Assembly (NCBI RefSeq): GCF_044324785.1
Contig: NZ_CP172127.1
Origin: Escherichia coli
Lineage (GTDB): Bacteria; Pseudomonadota; Gammaproteobacteria; Enterobacterales; Enterobacteriaceae
Length of the DNA stretch: 64,000 nucleotides
Reading direction: 5' to 3' (one strand)
Shown here: positions 17,831 through 51,379 of the stretch, piece after piece
Layout of the letters: the number at the start of each line of letters is the position of its first letter
Numbering within the stretch: the stretch's first letter is position 1
Notes under the pieces: model-generated
Seen by the model: the letters and a program-made list of their open reading frames with translations, nothing else
Databases searched by the model: none
What the model was told of the DNA's origin: nothing
Position numbers and translations under genes: made by a program

Positions 17831-17872
17831 GTCGGACGTAGGTCGGATAAGGCGTTCTTGCCGCATCCGACA
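17831..17872. repeat. REP-like palindromic element in the purC 5' region
   Basis: ggtcggataaggcgttcttgccgcatccgac has the REP signature (GGATAAGGCG...GCCGCATCC) with gtcggat/atccgac arms. Confidence 0.65.
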
Positions 17873-22483: not shown

Positions 22484-22494
22484 TAATAGCCGGG

Positions 22495-22558
22495 TAGGCC
22501 TGATAAGACCGTATCAGGCATCATGGCCGGATGCGGCGTTAACGCCTTATCCGGCCAC
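22495..22558. repeat. Pair of REP elements (BIME-like) between convergent ypfH and ypfN
   Basis: gtaggcctgataagaccgtatcaggc followed by ggccggatgcggcgttaacgccttatccggcc, a canonical REP sequence. Confidence 0.8.
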
Positions 22559-42032: not shown

Positions 42033-43045
42033 TTATTGAACGTTGTCGTGAACTGGCGTTGCGAGCGCCCGCCAGAGTGGTATTTCCGGATGCGTTAGAT
42101 CAACGTGTGCTGAAAGCTGCGCAATATTTACATCAACAAGGTCTGGCAACGCCCATTCTGGTCGCCAATCCGTTTGAACTTCGTCAGTTTGCGCTCAGTC
42201 ACGGCGTGGCGATGGACGGGCTACAGGTGATAGATCCGCATGGCAACCTCGCAATGCGGGAAGAATTTGCTCTCCGCTGGCTGGCCCGTGCGGGCGAAAA
42301 AACGCCGCCGGATGCGCTGGAAAAACTCACCGATCCGCTGATGTTCGCTGCCGCAATGGTCAGCGCCGGGACAGCGGATGTTTGCATTGCGGGCAATCTC
42401 TCTTCCACGGCGAATGTGCTGCGTGCCGGATTACGCATTATTGGCTTACAGCCAGGCTGTAAAACGCTCTCCTCCATTTTCCTGATGCTGCCGCAGTACA
42501 GCGGCCCGGCGTTGGGCTTTGCCGATTGCAGCGTGGTGCCACAGCCGACGGCGGCGCAGCTGGCGGATATCGCGCTTGCCAGCGCCGAAACCTGGCGCGC
42601 CATCACCGGAGAAGAGCCGCGCGTGGCGATGTTGTCGTTTTCCAGTAACGGCAGCGCCCGTCACCCCTGCGTTGCCAACGTCCAGCAGGCGACAGAAATC
42701 GTCCGTGAGCGCGCGCCGCAGTTGGTAGTCGATGGCGAGTTGCAGTTTGACGCCGCCTTCGTGCCGGAAGTGGCGGCGCAAAAAGCGCCTGCCAGCCCAC
42801 TACAAGGCAAAGCCAATGTGATGGTTTTTCCGTCGCTGGAAGCCGGAAATATTGGCTACAAAATCGCACAACGACTCGGCGGATATCGTGCCGTCGGGCC
42901 ATTGATACAAGGACTTGCCGCGCCGATGCACGATCTCTCTCGTGGTTGTAGCGTGCAGGAAATTATCGAGCTGGCGCTGGTGGCAGCTGTGCCGCGTCAG
43001 ACAGAAGTAAACCGTGAAAGCAGTTTACAAACACTGGTTGAATGA
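42029..43045 (+). CDS. eutD: Phosphotransacetylase EutD (EutI)
   Basis: 338 aa PTA-family ORF; ATGA overlap with eutT. Confidence 0.94.
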
Positions 43046-43083
43046 ACGGTCCCGTTCTGGACCCTGATAAAGAGGAAAGCACA

Positions 43084-43377
43084 ATGGAAGCATTAGGAAT
43101 GATCGAAACCCGGGGCCTGGTTGCACTGATTGAGGCTTCTGACGCGATGGTGAAAGCTGCGCGCGTCAAGCTGGTTGGTGTTAAGCAGATTGGCGGCGGC
43201 CTGTGTACTGCCATGGTTCGTGGTGATGTTGCAGCCTGTAAAGCCGCGACCGACGCAGGTGCTGCAGCGGCACAGCGTATCGGCGAGCTGGTATCTGTAC
43301 ACGTTATCCCGCGTCCGCACGGCGACCTGGAAGAAGTCTTCCCGATCGGCCTCAAAGGCGATAGCAGCAACCTGTAA
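43084..43377 (+). CDS. eutM: Major microcompartment shell protein EutM (BMC-H)
   Basis: 97 aa from ATG 43084 ([26 protein letters not shown]...) with GAGGAAA RBS. Confidence 0.95.
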
Positions 43378-43386
43378 TCACCCTGT

Positions 43387-43408
43387 GTGACGTCGATTCG
43401 GGCGTCAC
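43387..43408 (+). other. Hairpin (gtgacg-N10-cgtcac) followed by a T-rich tract in the eutM-eutN spacer
   Basis: 6-bp stem then ctctctcctttttcatttt; a possible weak attenuator within the operon. Confidence 0.3.
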
Positions 43409-43483
43409 GCTCTCTCCTTTTTCATTTTACCTTCCGCGGAGGGTAGGGGGAGCTTTTACCTGAAATACGCCACGGAGGCGGGT

Positions 43484-43771
43484 ATGAAACTGGCAGTCGT
43501 CACTGGACAAATTGTTTGTACCGTACGCCATCACGGACTGGCGCATGACAAATTGCTGATGGTGGAAATGATTGATCCACAAGGTAATCCTGACGGGCAA
43601 TGCGCCGTCGCCATCGACAATATTGGCGCGGGAACCGGGGAGTGGGTGTTGCTGGTGAGTGGCAGTTCCGCCCGCCAGGCGCATAAAAGCGAAACGTCAC
43701 CGGTCGATCTGTGCGTGATTGGCATCGTCGATGAGGTGGTGTCTGGCGGTCAGGTAATTTTCCACAAATAA
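43484..43771 (+). CDS. eutN: Microcompartment vertex protein EutN (BMC-P family)
   Basis: 95 aa matching E. coli EutN. Confidence 0.94.
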   Translation: MKLAVVTGQIVCTVRHHGLAHDKLLMVEMIDPQGNPDGQCAVAIDNIGAGTGEWVLLVSGSSARQAHKSETSPVDLCVIGIVDEVVSGGQVIFHK

Positions 43772-43782
43772 GGCAGAACATC

Positions 43783-45186
43783 ATGAATCAACAGGATATT
43801 GAACAGGTGGTGAAAGCGGTACTGCTGAAAATGCAAAGCAGTGACACGCCGCCCGCCGCCGTTCATGAGATGGGCGTTTTCGCGTCCCTGGATGACGCCG
43901 TTGCGGCAGCCAAAATTGCCCAGCAAGGGTTAAAAAGCGTGGCAATGCGCCAGTTAGCCATTGCTGCCATTCGTGAGGCAGGCGAAAAACACGCCAGAGA
44001 TTTAGCGGAACTTGCCGTCAGTGAAACCGGCATGGGCCGCGTCGAAGATAAATTTGCCAAAAACGTCGCTCAGGCGCGCGGCACACCAGGCGTTGAGTGC
44101 CTCTCTCCGCAAGTGCTGACAGGCGACAACGGCCTGACTTTAATTGAAAACGCGCCCTGGGGCGTGGTGGCTTCGGTGACGCCTTCCACTAACCCGGCGG
44201 CAACCGTAATTAACAACGCCATCAGCCTGATTGCCGCGGGCAACAGCGTCATTTTTGCCCCGCATCCGGCGGCGAAAAAAGTCTCCCAGCGGGCGATTAC
44301 GCTGCTCAACCAGGCGATTGTTGCCGCAGGCGGGCCGGAAAACTTACTGGTTACTGTGGCCAATCCGGATATCGAAACCGCACAACGCTTGTTCAAGTTT
44401 CCGGGTATTGGCCTTTTGGTGGTGACCGGCGGCGAAGCGGTAGTAGAAGCGGCGCGTAAACACACCAATAAACGTCTGATTGCCGCAGGTGCCGGTAACC
44501 CGCCGGTAGTGGTGGATGAAACCGCCGACCTCGCCCGTGCCGCTCAGTCCATCGTTAAAGGTGCTTCTTTCGATAACAACATCATTTGTGCCGACGAAAA
44601 GGTACTGATTGTTGTTGATAGCGTAGCCGATGAACTGATGCGTCTGATGGAAGGCCAGCACGCGGTGAAACTGACCGCAGAGCAGGCGCAGCAGCTACAA
44701 CCGGTGTTGCTGAAAAATATCGACGAGCGCGGAAAAGGCACCGTCAGCCGTGACTGGGTTGGTCGCGATGCGGCGAAAATCGCGGCGGCAATCGGCCTTA
44801 AAGTTCCGGAACAAACGCGACTGCTGTTTGTGGAAACCACTGCAGAACATCCGTTTGCCGTGACTGAACTGATGATGCCGGTGCTGCCCGTCGTGCGCGT
44901 CGCCAACGTGGCGGATGCCATTGCGCTGGCGGTGAAACTGGAAGGCGGTTGCCACCACACGGCGGCAATGCACTCGCGCAATATCGAGAACATGAACCAG
45001 ATGGCGAATGCCATTGATACCAGCATTTTCGTTAAGAACGGACCGTGCATTGCCGGGCTGGGGCTGGGCGGGGAAGGCTGGACCACCATGACCATCACCA
45101 CGCCAACCGGTGAAGGGGTAACCAGCGCGCGGACGTTTGTCCGTCTGCGTCGCTGTGTATTAGTCGATGCGTTTCGCATTGTTTAA
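43783..45186 (+). CDS. eutE: Acetaldehyde dehydrogenase (CoA-acetylating) EutE
   Basis: 467 aa aldehyde-dehydrogenase-family ORF. Confidence 0.95.
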   Translation: MNQQDIEQVVKAVLLKMQSSDTPPAAVHEMGVFASLDDAVAAAKIAQQGLKSVAMRQLAIAAIREAGEKHARDLAELAVSETGMGRVEDKFAKNVAQARGTPGVECLSPQVLTGDNGLTLIENAPWGVVASVTPSTNPAATVINNAISLIAAGNSVIFAPHPAAKKVSQRAITLLNQAIVAAGGPENLLVTVANPDIETAQRLFKFPGIGLLVVTGGEAVVEAARKHTNKRLIAAGAGNPPVVVDETADLARAAQSIVKGASFDNNIICADEKVLIVVDSVADELMRLMEGQHAVKLTAEQAQQLQPVLLKNIDERGKGTVSRDWVGRDAAKIAAAIGLKVPEQTRLLFVETTAEHPFAVTELMMPVLPVVRVANVADAIALAVKLEGGCHHTAAMHSRNIENMNQMANAIDTSIFVKNGPCIAGLGLGGEGWTTMTITTPTGEGVTSARTFVRLRRCVLVDAFRIV

Positions 45187-47210: not shown

Positions 47211-47217
47211 AAGTGTA

Positions 47218-47335
47218 CGGACAGTCCCCTCGCCCCTTTGGGGAGAGGGTTAGGGTGAGGGGAACAGAGTCGCGCCGGTGCAAACAATTACCCTCACCCC
47301 GGCCCCTCGGCTTCCAGAGTGAGGGAAAAACCCAC
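47218..47335. repeat. GC-rich intergenic repeat, copy 2, plus downstream inverted partial copies, between eutG and eutH
   Basis: 47218-47266 cggacagtcccctcgcccctttggggagagggttagggtgaggggaaca; 47291-47300 ccctcacccc is the reverse complement of the gggtgagggg core, and gagtgaggg recurs at ~47318. Confidence 0.75.
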
Positions 47336-47379
47336 TTTCAGCATTGGCAATAAATAACAACTAACAGGGAGTAAAGGTG

Positions 47380-48606: not shown

Positions 48607-50006
48607 ACACTCGCCAGCTACTGAGCGTCGGTATCGATATCGGCACCACCACCACCCAGGTGATCTTCTCCCACCTGGAACTGGTTAACCGTGCGGCGGT
48701 GTCGCAGGTGCCGCGCTACGAATTCATCAAACGCGAAATTAGCTGGCAAAGCCCGGTGTTCTTTACCCCTGTCGATAAACAGGGTGGTTTAAAAGAAGCG
48801 GAACTGAAATCGCTGATTTTAGAGCAATATCAGGCTGCGGGCATTGCGCCGGAAAGCGTTGATTCTGGTGCCATCATCATCACCGGTGAAAGCGCGAAAA
48901 CCCGCAACGCTCGCCCGGCGGTGATGACGCTCTCCCAGTCGCTGGGCGATTTTGTCGTCGCCAGCGCCGGGCCGCATCTCGAATCCGTGATCGCCGGTCA
49001 CGGTGCCGGGGCGCAAACCCTTTCTGAACAACGGCTGTGTCGGGTACTGAATATCGACATCGGCGGTGGCACCGCGAACTACGCCCTGTTCGATGCCGGA
49101 AAAATCAGCGGCACTGCCTGCCTCAACGTTGGCGGTCGCCTGCTGGAAACCGACAGCCAGGGGCGCGTGGTTTACGCTCATATACCGGGGCAGATGATTG
49201 TGGATGAGTGCTTCGGTGCAGGCACTGACGCCCGTTCGCTGACCGGCACGCAGTTGGTGCAGGTTACCCGGCGGATGGCAGAACTGATTGTCGAAGTGAT
49301 TGACGGAACGCTCTCGCCGCTCGCGCAGGCATTGATGCAAACCGGTTTGTTGCCCGCAGGTGTTACGCCCGAAATCATTACGCTTTCTGGCGGCGTGGGC
49401 GAATGTTATCGCCACCAGCCCGCCGACCCGTTCTGTTTTGCCGATATCGGCCCGCTTCTGGCAACGGCGCTGCATGACCATCAGCGCCTGCGTGAGATGA
49501 ACGTGCAGTTTCCAGCGCAAACCGTGCGCGCCACGGTGATTGGCGCGGGCGCACATACCCTTTCGCTCTCTGGCAGCACAATCTGGCTGGAGGGCGTACA
49601 ACTGCCGCTGCGCAATTTGCCGGTGGCGATCCCAATTGATGAAACGGATCTGGTGAGTGCCTGGCAACAGGCGCTGATTCAGCTGGATCTTTGCCCCAAA
49701 ACTGACGCGTACGTGCTGGCGCTTCCCGCCTCGCTGCCTGTGCGTTACGCCGCGGTACTGACGGTCATCAACGCGCTGGTCGATTTCGTCGCGCGTTTTC
49801 CGAATCCGCATCCCCTGCTGGTGGTGGCCGGGCAGGACTTTGGTAAAGCTCTGGGCATGTTGTTGCGCCCACAGCTACAACAACTCCCGTTGGCAGTCAT
49901 TGACGAAGTGATTGTCCGCGCGGGGGACTATATCGACATTGGTACGCCTCTTTTTGGCGGATCGGTTGTGCCGGTGACGGTGAAATCACTCGCATTTCCT
50001 TCCTGA
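48603..50006 (+). CDS. eutA: Ethanolamine ammonia-lyase reactivase EutA
   Basis: 467 aa, GTG start overlapping the eutH stop (GTGA). Confidence 0.94.
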   Translation: MNTRQLLSVGIDIGTTTTQVIFSHLELVNRAAVSQVPRYEFIKREISWQSPVFFTPVDKQGGLKEAELKSLILEQYQAAGIAPESVDSGAIIITGESAKTRNARPAVMTLSQSLGDFVVASAGPHLESVIAGHGAGAQTLSEQRLCRVLNIDIGGGTANYALFDAGKISGTACLNVGGRLLETDSQGRVVYAHIPGQMIVDECFGAGTDARSLTGTQLVQVTRRMAELIVEVIDGTLSPLAQALMQTGLLPAGVTPEIITLSGGVGECYRHQPADPFCFADIGPLLATALHDHQRLREMNVQFPAQTVRATVIGAGAHTLSLSGSTIWLEGVQLPLRNLPVAIPIDETDLVSAWQQALIQLDLCPKTDAYVLALPASLPVRYAAVLTVINALVDFVARFPNPHPLLVVAGQDFGKALGMLLRPQLQQLPLAVIDEVIVRAGDYIDIGTPLFGGSVVPVTVKSLAFPS

Positions 50007-50017
50007 GGGAACGACTT

Positions 50018-51379
50018 ATGAAACTAAAGACCACATTGTTCGGCAATGTATATCAGTTTAAGGATGTAAAAGAGGTGCTGGCTAAAGCCAACGAACTGCG
50101 TTCGGGGGATGTGCTGGCGGGCGTTGCAGCGGCAAGCTCACAAGAGCGCGTGGCGGCAAAGCAGGTGTTGTCGGAAATGACCGTAGCGGACATCCGCAAT
50201 AATCCGGTGATTGCCTATGAAGATGACTGCGTGACGCGGCTGATTCAGGACGACGTTAACGAAACGGCCTACAACCAGATTAAAAACTGGAGCATCAGCG
50301 AACTGCGTGAGTATGTGCTGAGCGATGAAACCAGCGTGGACGACATTGCCTTTACCCGCAAAGGGCTGACCTCGGAAGTGGTCGCGGCGGTAGCGAAGAT
50401 TTGCTCCAACGCGGACCTGATCTACGGCGCGAAGAAAATGCCGGTAATCAAAAAGGCCAATACCACCATCGGTATTCCGGGCACCTTTAGCGCCCGTTTG
50501 CAGCCAAATGACACCCGTGACGACGTGCAAAGTATCGCCGCGCAAATCTACGAAGGGCTTTCCTTCGGGGTGGGCGATGCGGTGATCGGCGTTAACCCGG
50601 TGACTGACGATGTGGAAAACTTAAGCCGCGTGTTGGACACCATTTACGGCGTGATCGACAAATTCAACATTCCGACCCAGGGCTGCGTGCTGGCGCACGT
50701 CACCACCCAGATTGAAGCGATCCGTCGTGGCGCACCAGGCGGGCTGATTTTCCAGAGTATCTGCGGCAGCGAAAAAGGGCTGAAAGAATTTGGCGTGGAG
50801 CTGGCGATGCTCGATGAAGCACGCGCAGTGGGCGCGGAGTTCAACCGTATCGCCGGGGAAAACTGCCTCTACTTCGAAACCGGACAAGGCTCTGCGCTGT
50901 CCGCTGGCGCTAACTTCGGCGCAGACCAGGTGACGATGGAAGCACGTAACTATGGGCTGGCGCGTCATTACGATCCGTTTATCGTCAACACCGTGGTCGG
51001 CTTTATTGGGCCGGAGTATCTCTACAACGACCGCCAGATTATCCGTGCGGGCTTAGAAGATCACTTTATGGGTAAGCTGAGCGGCATCTCTATGGGCTGT
51101 GACTGCTGCTACACCAACCACGCTGACGCTGACCAGAACCTCAACGAAAACCTCATGATCCTGCTCGCCACCGCAGGCTGCAACTACATCATGGGGATGC
51201 CGCTGGGTGATGACATCATGCTCAACTACCAGACCACCGCCTTCCACGATACTGCCACTGTGCGTCAGTTACTCAACCTGCGCCCGTCACCGGAGTTTGA
51301 ACGCTGGCTGGAAAGCATGGGCATTATGGCAAACGGTCGCCTGACCAAACGGGCGGGCGATCCGTCACTGTTCTTCTGA
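50018..51379 (+). CDS. eutB: Ethanolamine ammonia-lyase large subunit EutB
   Basis: 453 aa; begins 11 bp after eutA with no inserted DNA. Confidence 0.96.
   Translation: MKLKTTLFGNVYQFKDVKEVLAKANELRSGDVLAGVAAASSQERVAAKQVLSEMTVADIRNNPVIAYEDDCVTRLIQDDVNETAYNQIKNWSISELREYVLSDETSVDDIAFTRKGLTSEVVAAVAKICSNADLIYGAKKMPVIKKANTTIGIPGTFSARLQPNDTRDDVQSIAAQIYEGLSFGVGDAVIGVNPVTDDVENLSRVLDTIYGVIDKFNIPTQGCVLAHVTTQIEAIRRGAPGGLIFQSICGSEKGLKEFGVELAMLDEARAVGAEFNRIAGENCLYFETGQGSALSAGANFGADQVTMEARNYGLARHYDPFIVNTVVGFIGPEYLYNDRQIIRAGLEDHFMGKLSGISMGCDCCYTNHADADQNLNENLMILLATAGCNYIMGMPLGDDIMLNYQTTAFHDTATVRQLLNLRPSPEFERWLESMGIMANGRLTKRAGDPSLFF

Follow-up and report, generated by a model that had tools for sequence, protein, structure and literature searches.

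A conserved structured RNA element between eutM and eutN of Escherichia coli, with a possible role in unequal expression within the eut operon

The 106-nt spacer that separates eutM from eutN in the eut operon of Escherichia coli forms a set of conserved stem-loops in the sense transcript, and in several other genera the same place is occupied by palindromes of the REP (repetitive extragenic palindrome) type. We analysed it within a 64 000-nt stretch of E. coli DNA (contig NZ_CP172127.1 of assembly GCF_044324785.1; hereafter the window). A preliminary description, made from the letters of the window, had noticed there a 6-bp hairpin followed by a T-rich tract in an unusually long gap, and had suggested a partial terminator lowering the vertex protein EutN and the downstream enzymes relative to the abundant shell protein EutM. 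The reading that we put forward, to which we would give somewhat less than an even chance, is that the spacer acts in cis, as an intercistronic RNA element that makes expression unequal within one operon, its protective 3' hairpins being combined with an insulation of eutN at the level of translation. Structure, conservation, strand specificity and the replacement by REPs in other genera are results of the present analysis, the expression asymmetry is taken from the literature, and from these we infer an exonuclease barrier, a cleavage site, attenuation and translational insulation.

The eutM-eutN gap

The limits given to the gap were correct: the stop codon of eutM is at 43375-43377 and the ATG of eutN at 43484, which leaves 106 nt. 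It was equally right that most eut genes abut or overlap, the gaps in the window ranging from -26 to +20 nt with four exceptions, namely eutD-eutM (38 nt), eutK-eutR (45 nt), eutM-eutN (106 nt) and eutG-eutH (169 nt). The spacer is therefore far above the usual range, as had been said, but it is the second-longest of the operon and not the longest. When the complete genomes of E. coli were searched with 261 bases around the spacer, a single match was found in each of 5407 genomes out of 5426; a sensitive blastn search (E <= 10) likewise placed the spacer at one location per genome in these 5407. It carries no annotated feature in the output of the Prokaryotic Genome Annotation Pipeline (PGAP) or in the curated MG1655 record. 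A scan of positions 43000-43900 on both strands against Rfam 15 (E <= 10) returned zero matches, cobalamin riboswitch included, and no earlier description of the element was found in the literature searched, in Rfam or in genome annotation.

Fold of the spacer RNA

The minimum free energy (MFE) of the whole spacer is -42.2 kcal/mol (z = -2.7; one of 200 dinucleotide shuffles was as good), the fold of the antisense strand being weaker (-32.8, z = -1.7). Three stem-loops, SL1, SL2 and SL3 (see Table 1), were recovered both by single-sequence MFE folding and by RNAalifold on 17 orthologues. SL1, whose core strands are GUGACGUC and GGCGUCAC, begins 7-9 nt past the eutM stop codon and its pattern is present once in the window; the hairpin initially noticed thus exists, with a stem of 8-10 bp rather than 6 bp. 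The tract that follows it is indeed pyrimidine-rich, but it is not a free U-tract, since most of it constitutes the 5' strand of SL2: its CUCUCUCC part pairs with a GGGGGAG found 30 nt downstream, and the closing pair covaries (G-C / C-G / U.G). SL2 is a composite structure, in which a basal helix P2a, pairing (G)CUCUCUC(C) with GGGGGAG(C), is separated by an internal loop from a second helix, P2b (UACCUUC/GAGGGUA, 43428-43434 with 43439-43445), capped by a tetraloop at 43435-43438. P2a, made of a (CU)n run and a G-run (43409-43418 with 43446-43453), has two pairing registers 2 nt apart, which give either a 10-bp SL1 with a 7-bp P2a or an 8-bp SL1 with an 8-bp P2a. Then come the A/U-rich linker UUUUACCUGAAAUA, which could serve SL2 as a short U-tail, let a ribonuclease enter or bind a factor, and the eutN initiation region with SL3.

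A few other possibilities were considered and set aside. A long-range helix ACCC/GGGU (43380-43383 with 43480-43483) is seen in the E. coli MFE structure, and two E. coli variants changing a C to U keep a G.U pair; it is unsupported, given a 5' flank conserved at 32% and a different register in Citrobacter. Pairing of the linker with GGGUA or with the 3' strand of P2b was rejected, not being conserved in Citrobacter sp. R56 or in Klebsiella spallanzanii. A hidden small open reading frame (ORF) or read-through of the eutM stop was rejected as well: the + strand of the spacer contains no ATG, and the GTG-initiated 19-codon and the 22-codon read-through frames are ruled out because the variable length of the SL1 loop breaks both in other species. 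No in-frame start exists upstream of that of eutN. In Citrobacter (loci L006, L008, L011 and L019) and in K. spallanzanii, a mini-ORF, ATG-CCA-CGG-AGG-CGG-GTA-TGA, is present about 20 nt before the eutN ATG, with a stop that overlaps the eutN start codon; it is probably fortuitous, because its ATG reads ACG in Escherichia and is not conserved.

Evidence for a selected structure

A scan for terminator-like hairpin-plus-T patterns detected 9 sites in 3 kb, versus 4.1 +/- 2.2 in shuffled sequences, and this pattern alone is not significant. In our judgement it is the comparison between species that makes the decisive case against chance. A scan for EutN with one genome per species gave 48 loci, and the eutM-eutN spacer could be delimited in 42 of them. 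Seventeen spacers, those of the Escherichia clades, the Citrobacter freundii complex, Citrobacter sp. R56, NCU1, Awk4 and K. spallanzanii, were alignable over their full length. Standard pairs fill 98.8% of the pair cells of this alignment, a share that drops to 50-67% if the 3' partners are displaced by 1-3 columns, and none of 500 shuffles equalled the observed pairing or covariation score. Compensatory changes affect three pairs (A-U to G-C and C-G to U-A in P2b, and the G-C/C-G/U.G closing pair of P2a); the count rises to 10 once Buttiauxella and Entomohabitans are added, in an alignment which was fitted to the model and therefore leans towards the structure. The covariance model derived from the 17 sequences (R1) found this site only in the 64-kb window, with a score of 119.5 bits. 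It recognised the Buttiauxella and Entomohabitans spacers as divergent members (E-values from 1e-5 to 5e-3) and none of the REP-type spacers.

The distribution of the conserved positions follows the fold. Between Escherichia and the other genera, identity is 95% for the SL1 stem, 91% for P2b, 85% for P2a, 99% for the linker and 91% for the eutN initiation region, and it falls to 32% for the 5' flank and 11% for the SL1 loop; in the same comparison, the 4-fold degenerate sites of the flanking eutN and eutE genes are 52-62% identical. Across 21 distinct sequences, seven of the eight pairs of the SL1 core are invariant, the eighth being C-G, U.G or U-A, and the loop ranges from 5 to about 25 nt. 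The element is thus under purifying selection. Even the spacers of Buttiauxella and Entomohabitans preserve the core of the near-invariant linker, UACCUGAA, at a fixed distance to the eutN Shine-Dalgarno (7-8 nt from CGGAGG).

The conserved U.G pairs of SL1 and P2a would be A.C mismatches in the antisense strand, and the fold is thus a feature of the sense transcript. This bears on the idea of an element acting at the DNA level, be it an inverted repeat bound by a protein (GTGACGTC...GRCGTCAC) or a promoter inside the operon that would serve eutN-eutR, which we consider highly improbable. The arms of SL1 are almost invariant, each with a palindrome-like GACGTC, the downstream genes are well expressed, and a weak antisense 3' end inside eutM (see below) indicates that some antisense transcription crosses the spacer; but arms that lie anywhere between 5 and about 25 bp apart rule out a dimeric DNA-binding site, the U.G pairs tie the fold to one strand, and zero sigma-70-like matches were found in the spacer on either strand. 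A CRP site (TGTGA...TCAC) was rejected because its spacing, as read from the sequence, is not N6.

The same junction in other genera

All 42 spacers, which are 52-211 nt long, are predicted to fold into at least one stable stem-loop. In most loci the first one starts within about 10 nt of the eutM stop; L014, L017 and L035 are among the exceptions, where the first strong hairpin starts further in. The following gap, eutN-eutE, measures 10-15 nt in Enterobacteriaceae. An SL1-type hairpin is found in 24 loci, REP sequences or BIMEs (bacterial interspersed mosaic elements) in 14, and other G+C-rich palindromes in 4. The SL1-type element is kept in Escherichia, several Citrobacter lineages and K. 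spallanzanii, and is divergent in Buttiauxella and Entomohabitans; Yokenella, with a spacer of 52 nt, has SL1 alone. In the 14 REP/BIME-filled gaps, one or two palindromes (GCCGGATAAG..., CTTATCCGGCCTAC) replace SL1 and SL2. Their hosts are Salmonella, K. pneumoniae, the K. oxytoca group, C. koseri, C. amalonaticus, C. sedlakii, Pseudocitrobacter and Pluralibacter. These spacers retain only the eutN ribosome-binding region CCACGGAGGCGGGU, where a local hairpin, CCC-ACGGAGGC-GGG, again covers the Shine-Dalgarno. The two types can be found in close relatives: eutN is 90-93% identical between Citrobacter sp. R56 and C. amalonaticus, the spacers just 49-53%, and K. spallanzanii has an E. coli-type spacer where its sister species have REPs. 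Neither the Yokenella SL1 nor the REPs are followed by a U-tract; what all these loci share is the position of a predicted stable hairpin after eutM, rather than its sequence, and not a hairpin-plus-U terminator.

That the E. coli element could itself be a REP was rejected, since it is single-copy and without the REP consensus (...GCCGGATG...CTTATCCGGCCTAC); this motif, which the E. coli spacer lacks, occurs at other places of the window and in the spacers of Salmonella, Klebsiella and C. koseri. Ordinary REPs of the window include the CTTATCCGGCCTAC matches at 17838-17851 and 22494-22507, on the - strand. A pattern scan of metagenomes for divergent members gave 77 hits, among which were two eut loci, both identical to Buttiauxella agrestis. 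Three very short contigs (269-466 bp; L018, L032 and L043) carry an enterobacterial eutN (87-100% identity) in assemblies attributed to Gemelliphila palaticanis, a Prolixibacteraceae bacterium and Caballeronia mineralivorans; they are most likely assembly contamination. One E. coli strain, 90-1 (NZ_CP050047.1; L053, 1501-2870), has an IS911 in the spacer directly after SL2, at the equivalent of window position ~43456, with a 3-bp CTT target duplication; there, SL1 and SL2 are cut off from the linker and eutN.

Such turnover raises the possibility that the gap is non-functional filler, i.e. a tolerated landing pad which holds a relic palindrome in Escherichia and Citrobacter and REPs elsewhere, and of which only the last ~20 nt matter. 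Its content changes between close relatives, an IS911 sits inside it in one strain, and a dispersed repeat is found in eutG-eutH, the other long gap of the operon. Moreover, if nucleotides 7-94 of the spacer are removed, what remains is TAA-TCACCC-ACGGAGGCGGGT-ATG, which would pass for an ordinary short junction and resembles the REP-type spacers at their 3' end. We nonetheless regard filler as quite improbable, because the stems and the linker are far above synonymous-site conservation while the SL1 loop and the 5' flank drift, because compensatory changes keep the pairing, because the element is single-copy and belongs to no repeat family, and because in no lineage among the 42 loci has the gap collapsed to a short junction. 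On the side of function, that REPs occur at the same place is not decisive: they may simply land in any tolerated gap, and their co-occurrence is no proof of an equivalent role, a reservation that counts against our reading of the spacer.

Expression across the gap

The expression data available for the operon come from two published studies. In the proteome of E. coli K-12 grown with ethanolamine and B12, and on a scale where EutQ is 100, EutM is at 96 +/- 14 and EutN at 1 +/- 1, EutE, EutB, EutC and EutL are at 27, 37, 24 and 39, EutG is at 7, and the upstream-encoded EutD and EutS are at 10 and 11 (PMC11334477). In strain LF82, the basal values, in reads per kilobase per million (RPKM), are 108 for eutD, 55 for eutM, 5 for eutN, 14 for eutE, 13 for eutJ, 35 for eutG and 106 for eutH; upon induction by bile they become 357, 177, 62, 149, 147, 168 and 514, respectively (PMC6379400). 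The drop from eutM to eutN calculated from that table is about 11-fold in the basal state (55:5) and about 3-fold after induction (177:62); the step down at the spacer is modest and largely eutN-specific once the operon is induced. A vertex protein low relative to EutM, as the preliminary description had supposed, is therefore what the proteome shows, and in LF82 the eutN mRNA is likewise below that of eutM. The supposed lowering of the downstream enzymes is contradicted, EutE, EutB and EutL being all above EutD and EutS. The abundance of these three proteins, together with eutE, eutJ and eutG mRNA levels (147-168) near that of eutM (177), excludes a strong polar terminator.

A partial intrinsic (Rho-independent) terminator, at which some polymerases would stop after a hairpin and so yield more eutS-eutM than eutN-eutR transcript, is another matter; we hold it to be unlikely, and if there is one it may be weak, with an effect of at most about 2-3 fold. 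SL1 (-16.2 kcal/mol, 10 bp) and SL2 (about -16 kcal/mol) are both stable G/C-rich stem-loops, the scan flagged SL1 and its tail as terminator-like, and the LF82 values fall at the right place. Internal partial terminators are a known device, for instance at rplL-rpoB and gltI-sroC. The strength of the RNA:DNA hybrids was calculated with nearest-neighbour values (Sugimoto 1995). For the 8 nt that follow SL1 (UCUCUCCU) it is -9.3 kcal/mol, an ordinary figure, 29% of the 8-mers of the window being as weak or weaker. The 8 nt after SL2 (UUUUACCU; UUUUACC), where the G/C-rich basal helix is followed by UUUU, are at -6.3 kcal/mol and rank among the weakest 3.6% of window 8-mers, but they contain only 4 U (U8, for comparison, is at -1.4 kcal/mol).

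Several observations go against termination. The tail of SL1 is interrupted by C and is itself paired in SL2. The 4-nt U-run of SL2 is invariant in the 17 core sequences only, the second hairpins of Buttiauxella and Entomohabitans being without UUUU, and with the Yokenella SL1 and the REP-type spacers also devoid of U-tract, the tract is not conserved along with the hairpin. Downstream mRNA and proteins are not depressed, and the hairpin-plus-T pattern is only about 2-fold enriched over shuffles in the region. Any intrinsic termination should, from the sequence of the tails, take place at SL2-UUUU (about 43453-43460), which is not the place first proposed for it, and be partial given the four U. 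From the terminator first proposed there subsist a selected sense-strand structure right after eutM and an unequal expression; the tail, the downstream levels and the orthologues disagree with it, and a free-tailed hairpin-plus-tract is not what the spacer contains.

A putative element for unequal expression

We tentatively propose that SL1 and SL2, directly 3' of eutM, would block 3'-to-5' exonucleases, so that decay intermediates and transcripts ending at the spacer would keep eutM and the preceding genes intact. A minority of polymerases may be halted at SL2-UUUU, which would amount to a weak attenuation. The linker after SL2 would be a probable site of entry or cutting of the transcript, G[C/G]↓UUUU fitting the RNase E preference RN↓WUU, or else a factor could bind there. 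The ribosome-binding site of eutN, partly paired and ~100 structured nt away from the heavily translated eutM, would be translated independently of eutM and at a low level. The expected outcome would be abundant EutM (about 100 times EutN), very little EutN, and undiminished downstream enzymes. A stable structure, conserved between species, at the boundary between a more abundant upstream and a less abundant downstream segment is one of the traits of a protective 3' structure, and it is present here, the boundary being supported by proteomics and by one RNA-seq table.

The predictions made for eutN translation are in line with this. The energy needed to open the -18 to +12 region of the eutN start is 11.5-14.7 kcal/mol, depending on the context considered, and this start is always among the four most occluded of the 17 eut start sites (that of eutR being the highest). 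Opening energy and protein abundance are negatively correlated (Spearman -0.54 to -0.78, n = 12 proteins). The structured gap of ~100 nt would in addition stop ribosomes ending at eutM from re-initiating at eutN. A possible companion, the hairpin-like motif GGUCC-CGUUCU-GGACC, is located in the eutD-eutM spacer; it is near-invariant in all Enterobacteriaceae loci except Buttiauxella, and with so little variation it displays no covariation. It may act as a stabiliser on the 5' side which, with SL1 and SL2 on the other, would bracket eutM in a shared mechanism.

Besides the reservation about REPs made above, a number of points weigh against the proposed element. A hairpin starting within 15 nt of the stop codon reportedly lowers expression of the upstream gene, as Liang and co-workers are said to have found in 2015. 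Translation alone can explain much of the 100:1 protein ratio, in which case SL1 and SL2 are left without a demonstrated role. The mRNA data are a single low-coverage set where eutD is above eutM and where eutE is back at the eutM level upon induction, so that a stabilisation specific to eutM is not evident at the RNA level. Term-seq data obtained with the operon off show no sense-strand 3' end at the spacer (Adams et al. 2021). Last, a generic barrier leaves the conservation of the sequence (seven of eight SL1 pairs, 99% of the linker) unexplained.

The same conservation, with the fixed distance of UACCUGAA to the Shine-Dalgarno, would be expected of a site for a trans-acting factor. In that scheme, a small RNA (sRNA) or an RNA-binding protein (CsrA, Hfq, ProQ or one encoded by the operon) would bind SL1, the linker or the GGA-containing hairpin and tune eutN and the downstream genes, or SL1-SL2-UUUU, whose layout recalls that of small RNAs derived from 3' ends, would give rise to a short stable RNA. 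The ACGGA in the SL3 loop, over the Shine-Dalgarno, resembles CsrA sites. But the CsrA CLIP (crosslinking and immunoprecipitation) supplements consulted have no eut entry, the Rfam scan gave zero family matches, a tail of four U is short for Hfq-dependent small RNAs, and the REP-type lineages manage without SL1, SL2 and linker, and we rate this scheme as distinctly unlikely. A long shot, in our estimation, is an undescribed specific cis-regulatory motif, made of the SL1 stem and UUUUACCUGAAAUA, that a dedicated trans factor (an sRNA, a global RNA-binding protein, or an operon-encoded nucleic-acid-binding protein, e.g. the C-terminal domain of EutK) would read so as to adjust the facet-to-vertex ratio of the shell, or else a stable sRNA made from the eutM 3' region.

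Table 1. Features of the eutM-eutN spacer and of its surroundings (window coordinates)
Feature	Coordinates	Strand	Description	Basis
eutM coding sequence	43084..43377	+	major hexameric shell protein, 97 aa	ORF and translation; RefSeq annotation of identical protein WP_000387713.1
eutN coding sequence	43484..43771	+	pentameric vertex protein, 95 aa	ORF, EutN scan, RefSeq annotation
eutM-eutN intercistronic spacer	43378..43483	+	whole element, 106 nt	
SL1 stem-loop	43385..43410	+	8-bp core 43387-43394 with 43401-43408; 10 bp in E. coli; loop GAUUCG; dG -16.2 kcal/mol	
Pyrimidine-rich tract ctctctcctttttcatttt (the 'T-rich tract' of the preliminary description)	43410..43428	+	P2a 5' strand CUCUCUCC, asymmetric internal loop UUUUUCAUU, first base of P2b	consensus fold, pair counts
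SL2 composite stem-loop	43409..43453	+	P2a, 9-11 nt 5' internal loop, P2b, tetraloop CGCG; dG about -16 kcal/mol	
Linker UUUUACCUGAAAUA	43454..43467	+	mostly unpaired (predicted); most conserved module	
eutN initiation region	43468..43486	+	weak hairpin SL3 CGCC-ACGGA-GGCG; GGAGG Shine-Dalgarno 43474-43478; AUG 43484	consensus fold
Possible companion motif GGUCC-CGUUCU-GGACC	43048..43063	+	in the 38-nt eutD-eutM spacer (43046-43083), ~20 nt upstream of the eutM AUG; consensus dG -6.7	

Other observations on the operon

A weak antisense 3' end is listed in the supplement of Adams et al. 2021 at MG1655 position 2572217 (+), which falls within eutM some 60 nt before its 3' end (window ~43317); it implies that some antisense transcription crosses the spacer, and no promoter was found for the transcript that ends there. 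At the other side of eutM, translation from an in-frame ATG located at 43042, where it overlaps the end of eutD, would make EutM 111 aa long (region 43042-43083), and eutM is given as 335 bp in the LF82 paper (PMC6379400). The extension is out of frame in Citrobacter, so that the annotated start, 43084, is the conserved one.

The longest gap of the operon is the eutG-eutH spacer (47211-47379), which measures 169 nt in the window against 216 nt in K-12. Variable between strains, it consists of a G+C-rich palindromic repeat (CCCCTCGCCCCTTTGGGGAGAGGGTTAGGGTGAGGG...) that occupies a median of 16 places in an E. coli genome. In the LF82 RNA-seq data eutH is ~3-fold above eutG, a hint of an internal promoter or of a stabiliser. 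The eutA-eutB gap is of 11 nt (50006-50018), the strain being without CPZ-55, the cryptic prophage by which the eut operon of K-12 MG1655 is split.

Significance and comparison with known systems

Microcompartment shells contain thousands of hexamers and only about 60 vertex subunits, and wrong ratios lead to malformed shells. Should the EutM:EutN ratio be set by this element, microcompartment engineering would find in it a compact, naturally occurring part with which to fix a stoichiometry within an operon, and it would explain the misassembly that is possible in refactored eut or shell operons lacking native spacers. The presence of unrelated hairpins at the same junction in sister genera is a natural experiment, through which the long-debated function of intra-operonic REPs can be tested by swapping. 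The element, unannotated and without an Rfam match, is a candidate entry for RNA-family databases; the type of mechanism is well known, and a specialist would find it tidy rather than surprising.

Enterobacterial eut operons are controlled by EutR. In Firmicutes, the EutV/ANTAR sites and the adenosylcobalamin (AdoCbl) riboswitch offer a parallel, as tandem hairpins of a eut locus that could control read-through (PMC5821096). Both identities were rejected for the present element: an ANTAR/EutV site needs two hexaloops with A1 and G4, whereas here the SL1 loop is GAUUCG (5-25 nt elsewhere) and the SL2 tetraloop is CGCG, UGCG or UUUG, and the riboswitch had zero Rfam match. The attenuator terminators found inside operons are, like SL1 and SL2, G/C-rich intercistronic hairpins, and SL2 is followed by UUUU; the eut spacer departs from them by U-tracts that are short or interrupted by C, by the pairing of the SL1 tract within SL2, by orthologues devoid of U-tract and by abundant downstream products.

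Stabilising structures offer other comparisons. The eutD-eutM motif and the 3' hairpins would bracket eutM in a way similar to the 5' stem-loop stabilisers of the papBA/ompA type, as these are cited in PMC5927463, the difference being that the eutD-eutM motif, whose role is putative, shows no covariation. In the puf operon of Rhodobacter capsulatus (pufA-pufL), according to what is cited in the same article (PMC5927463), hairpins after the genes for abundant subunits set a high ratio of abundant to rare products from one transcript; organism and sequence are different, the puf mechanism was established by experiment, that of eut is a proposal, and the mRNA downstream of the eut spacer is not clearly depleted. 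Protective 3' structures are common at operon-internal boundaries in E. coli (Dar & Sorek 2018, PMC5927463), most of them inside the downstream ORF and not in a spacer, and eut is not among the operons of that study. In its proposed working, the element is closest to the malEFG REP stabiliser, the puf hairpins and these protective structures. With the malE-malF REPs and such protective structures, it shares a stable stem-loop, conserved in enterics, placed just 3' of a gene whose product is needed in large excess over that of the next gene, whereas it differs from REPs in being unique-copy, unrelated in sequence and endowed with an invariant unpaired linker. REPs such as those of malE-malF are the textbook intercistronic 3' stabilisers, and in Salmonella and Klebsiella the eutM-eutN gap is literally a REP/BIME.

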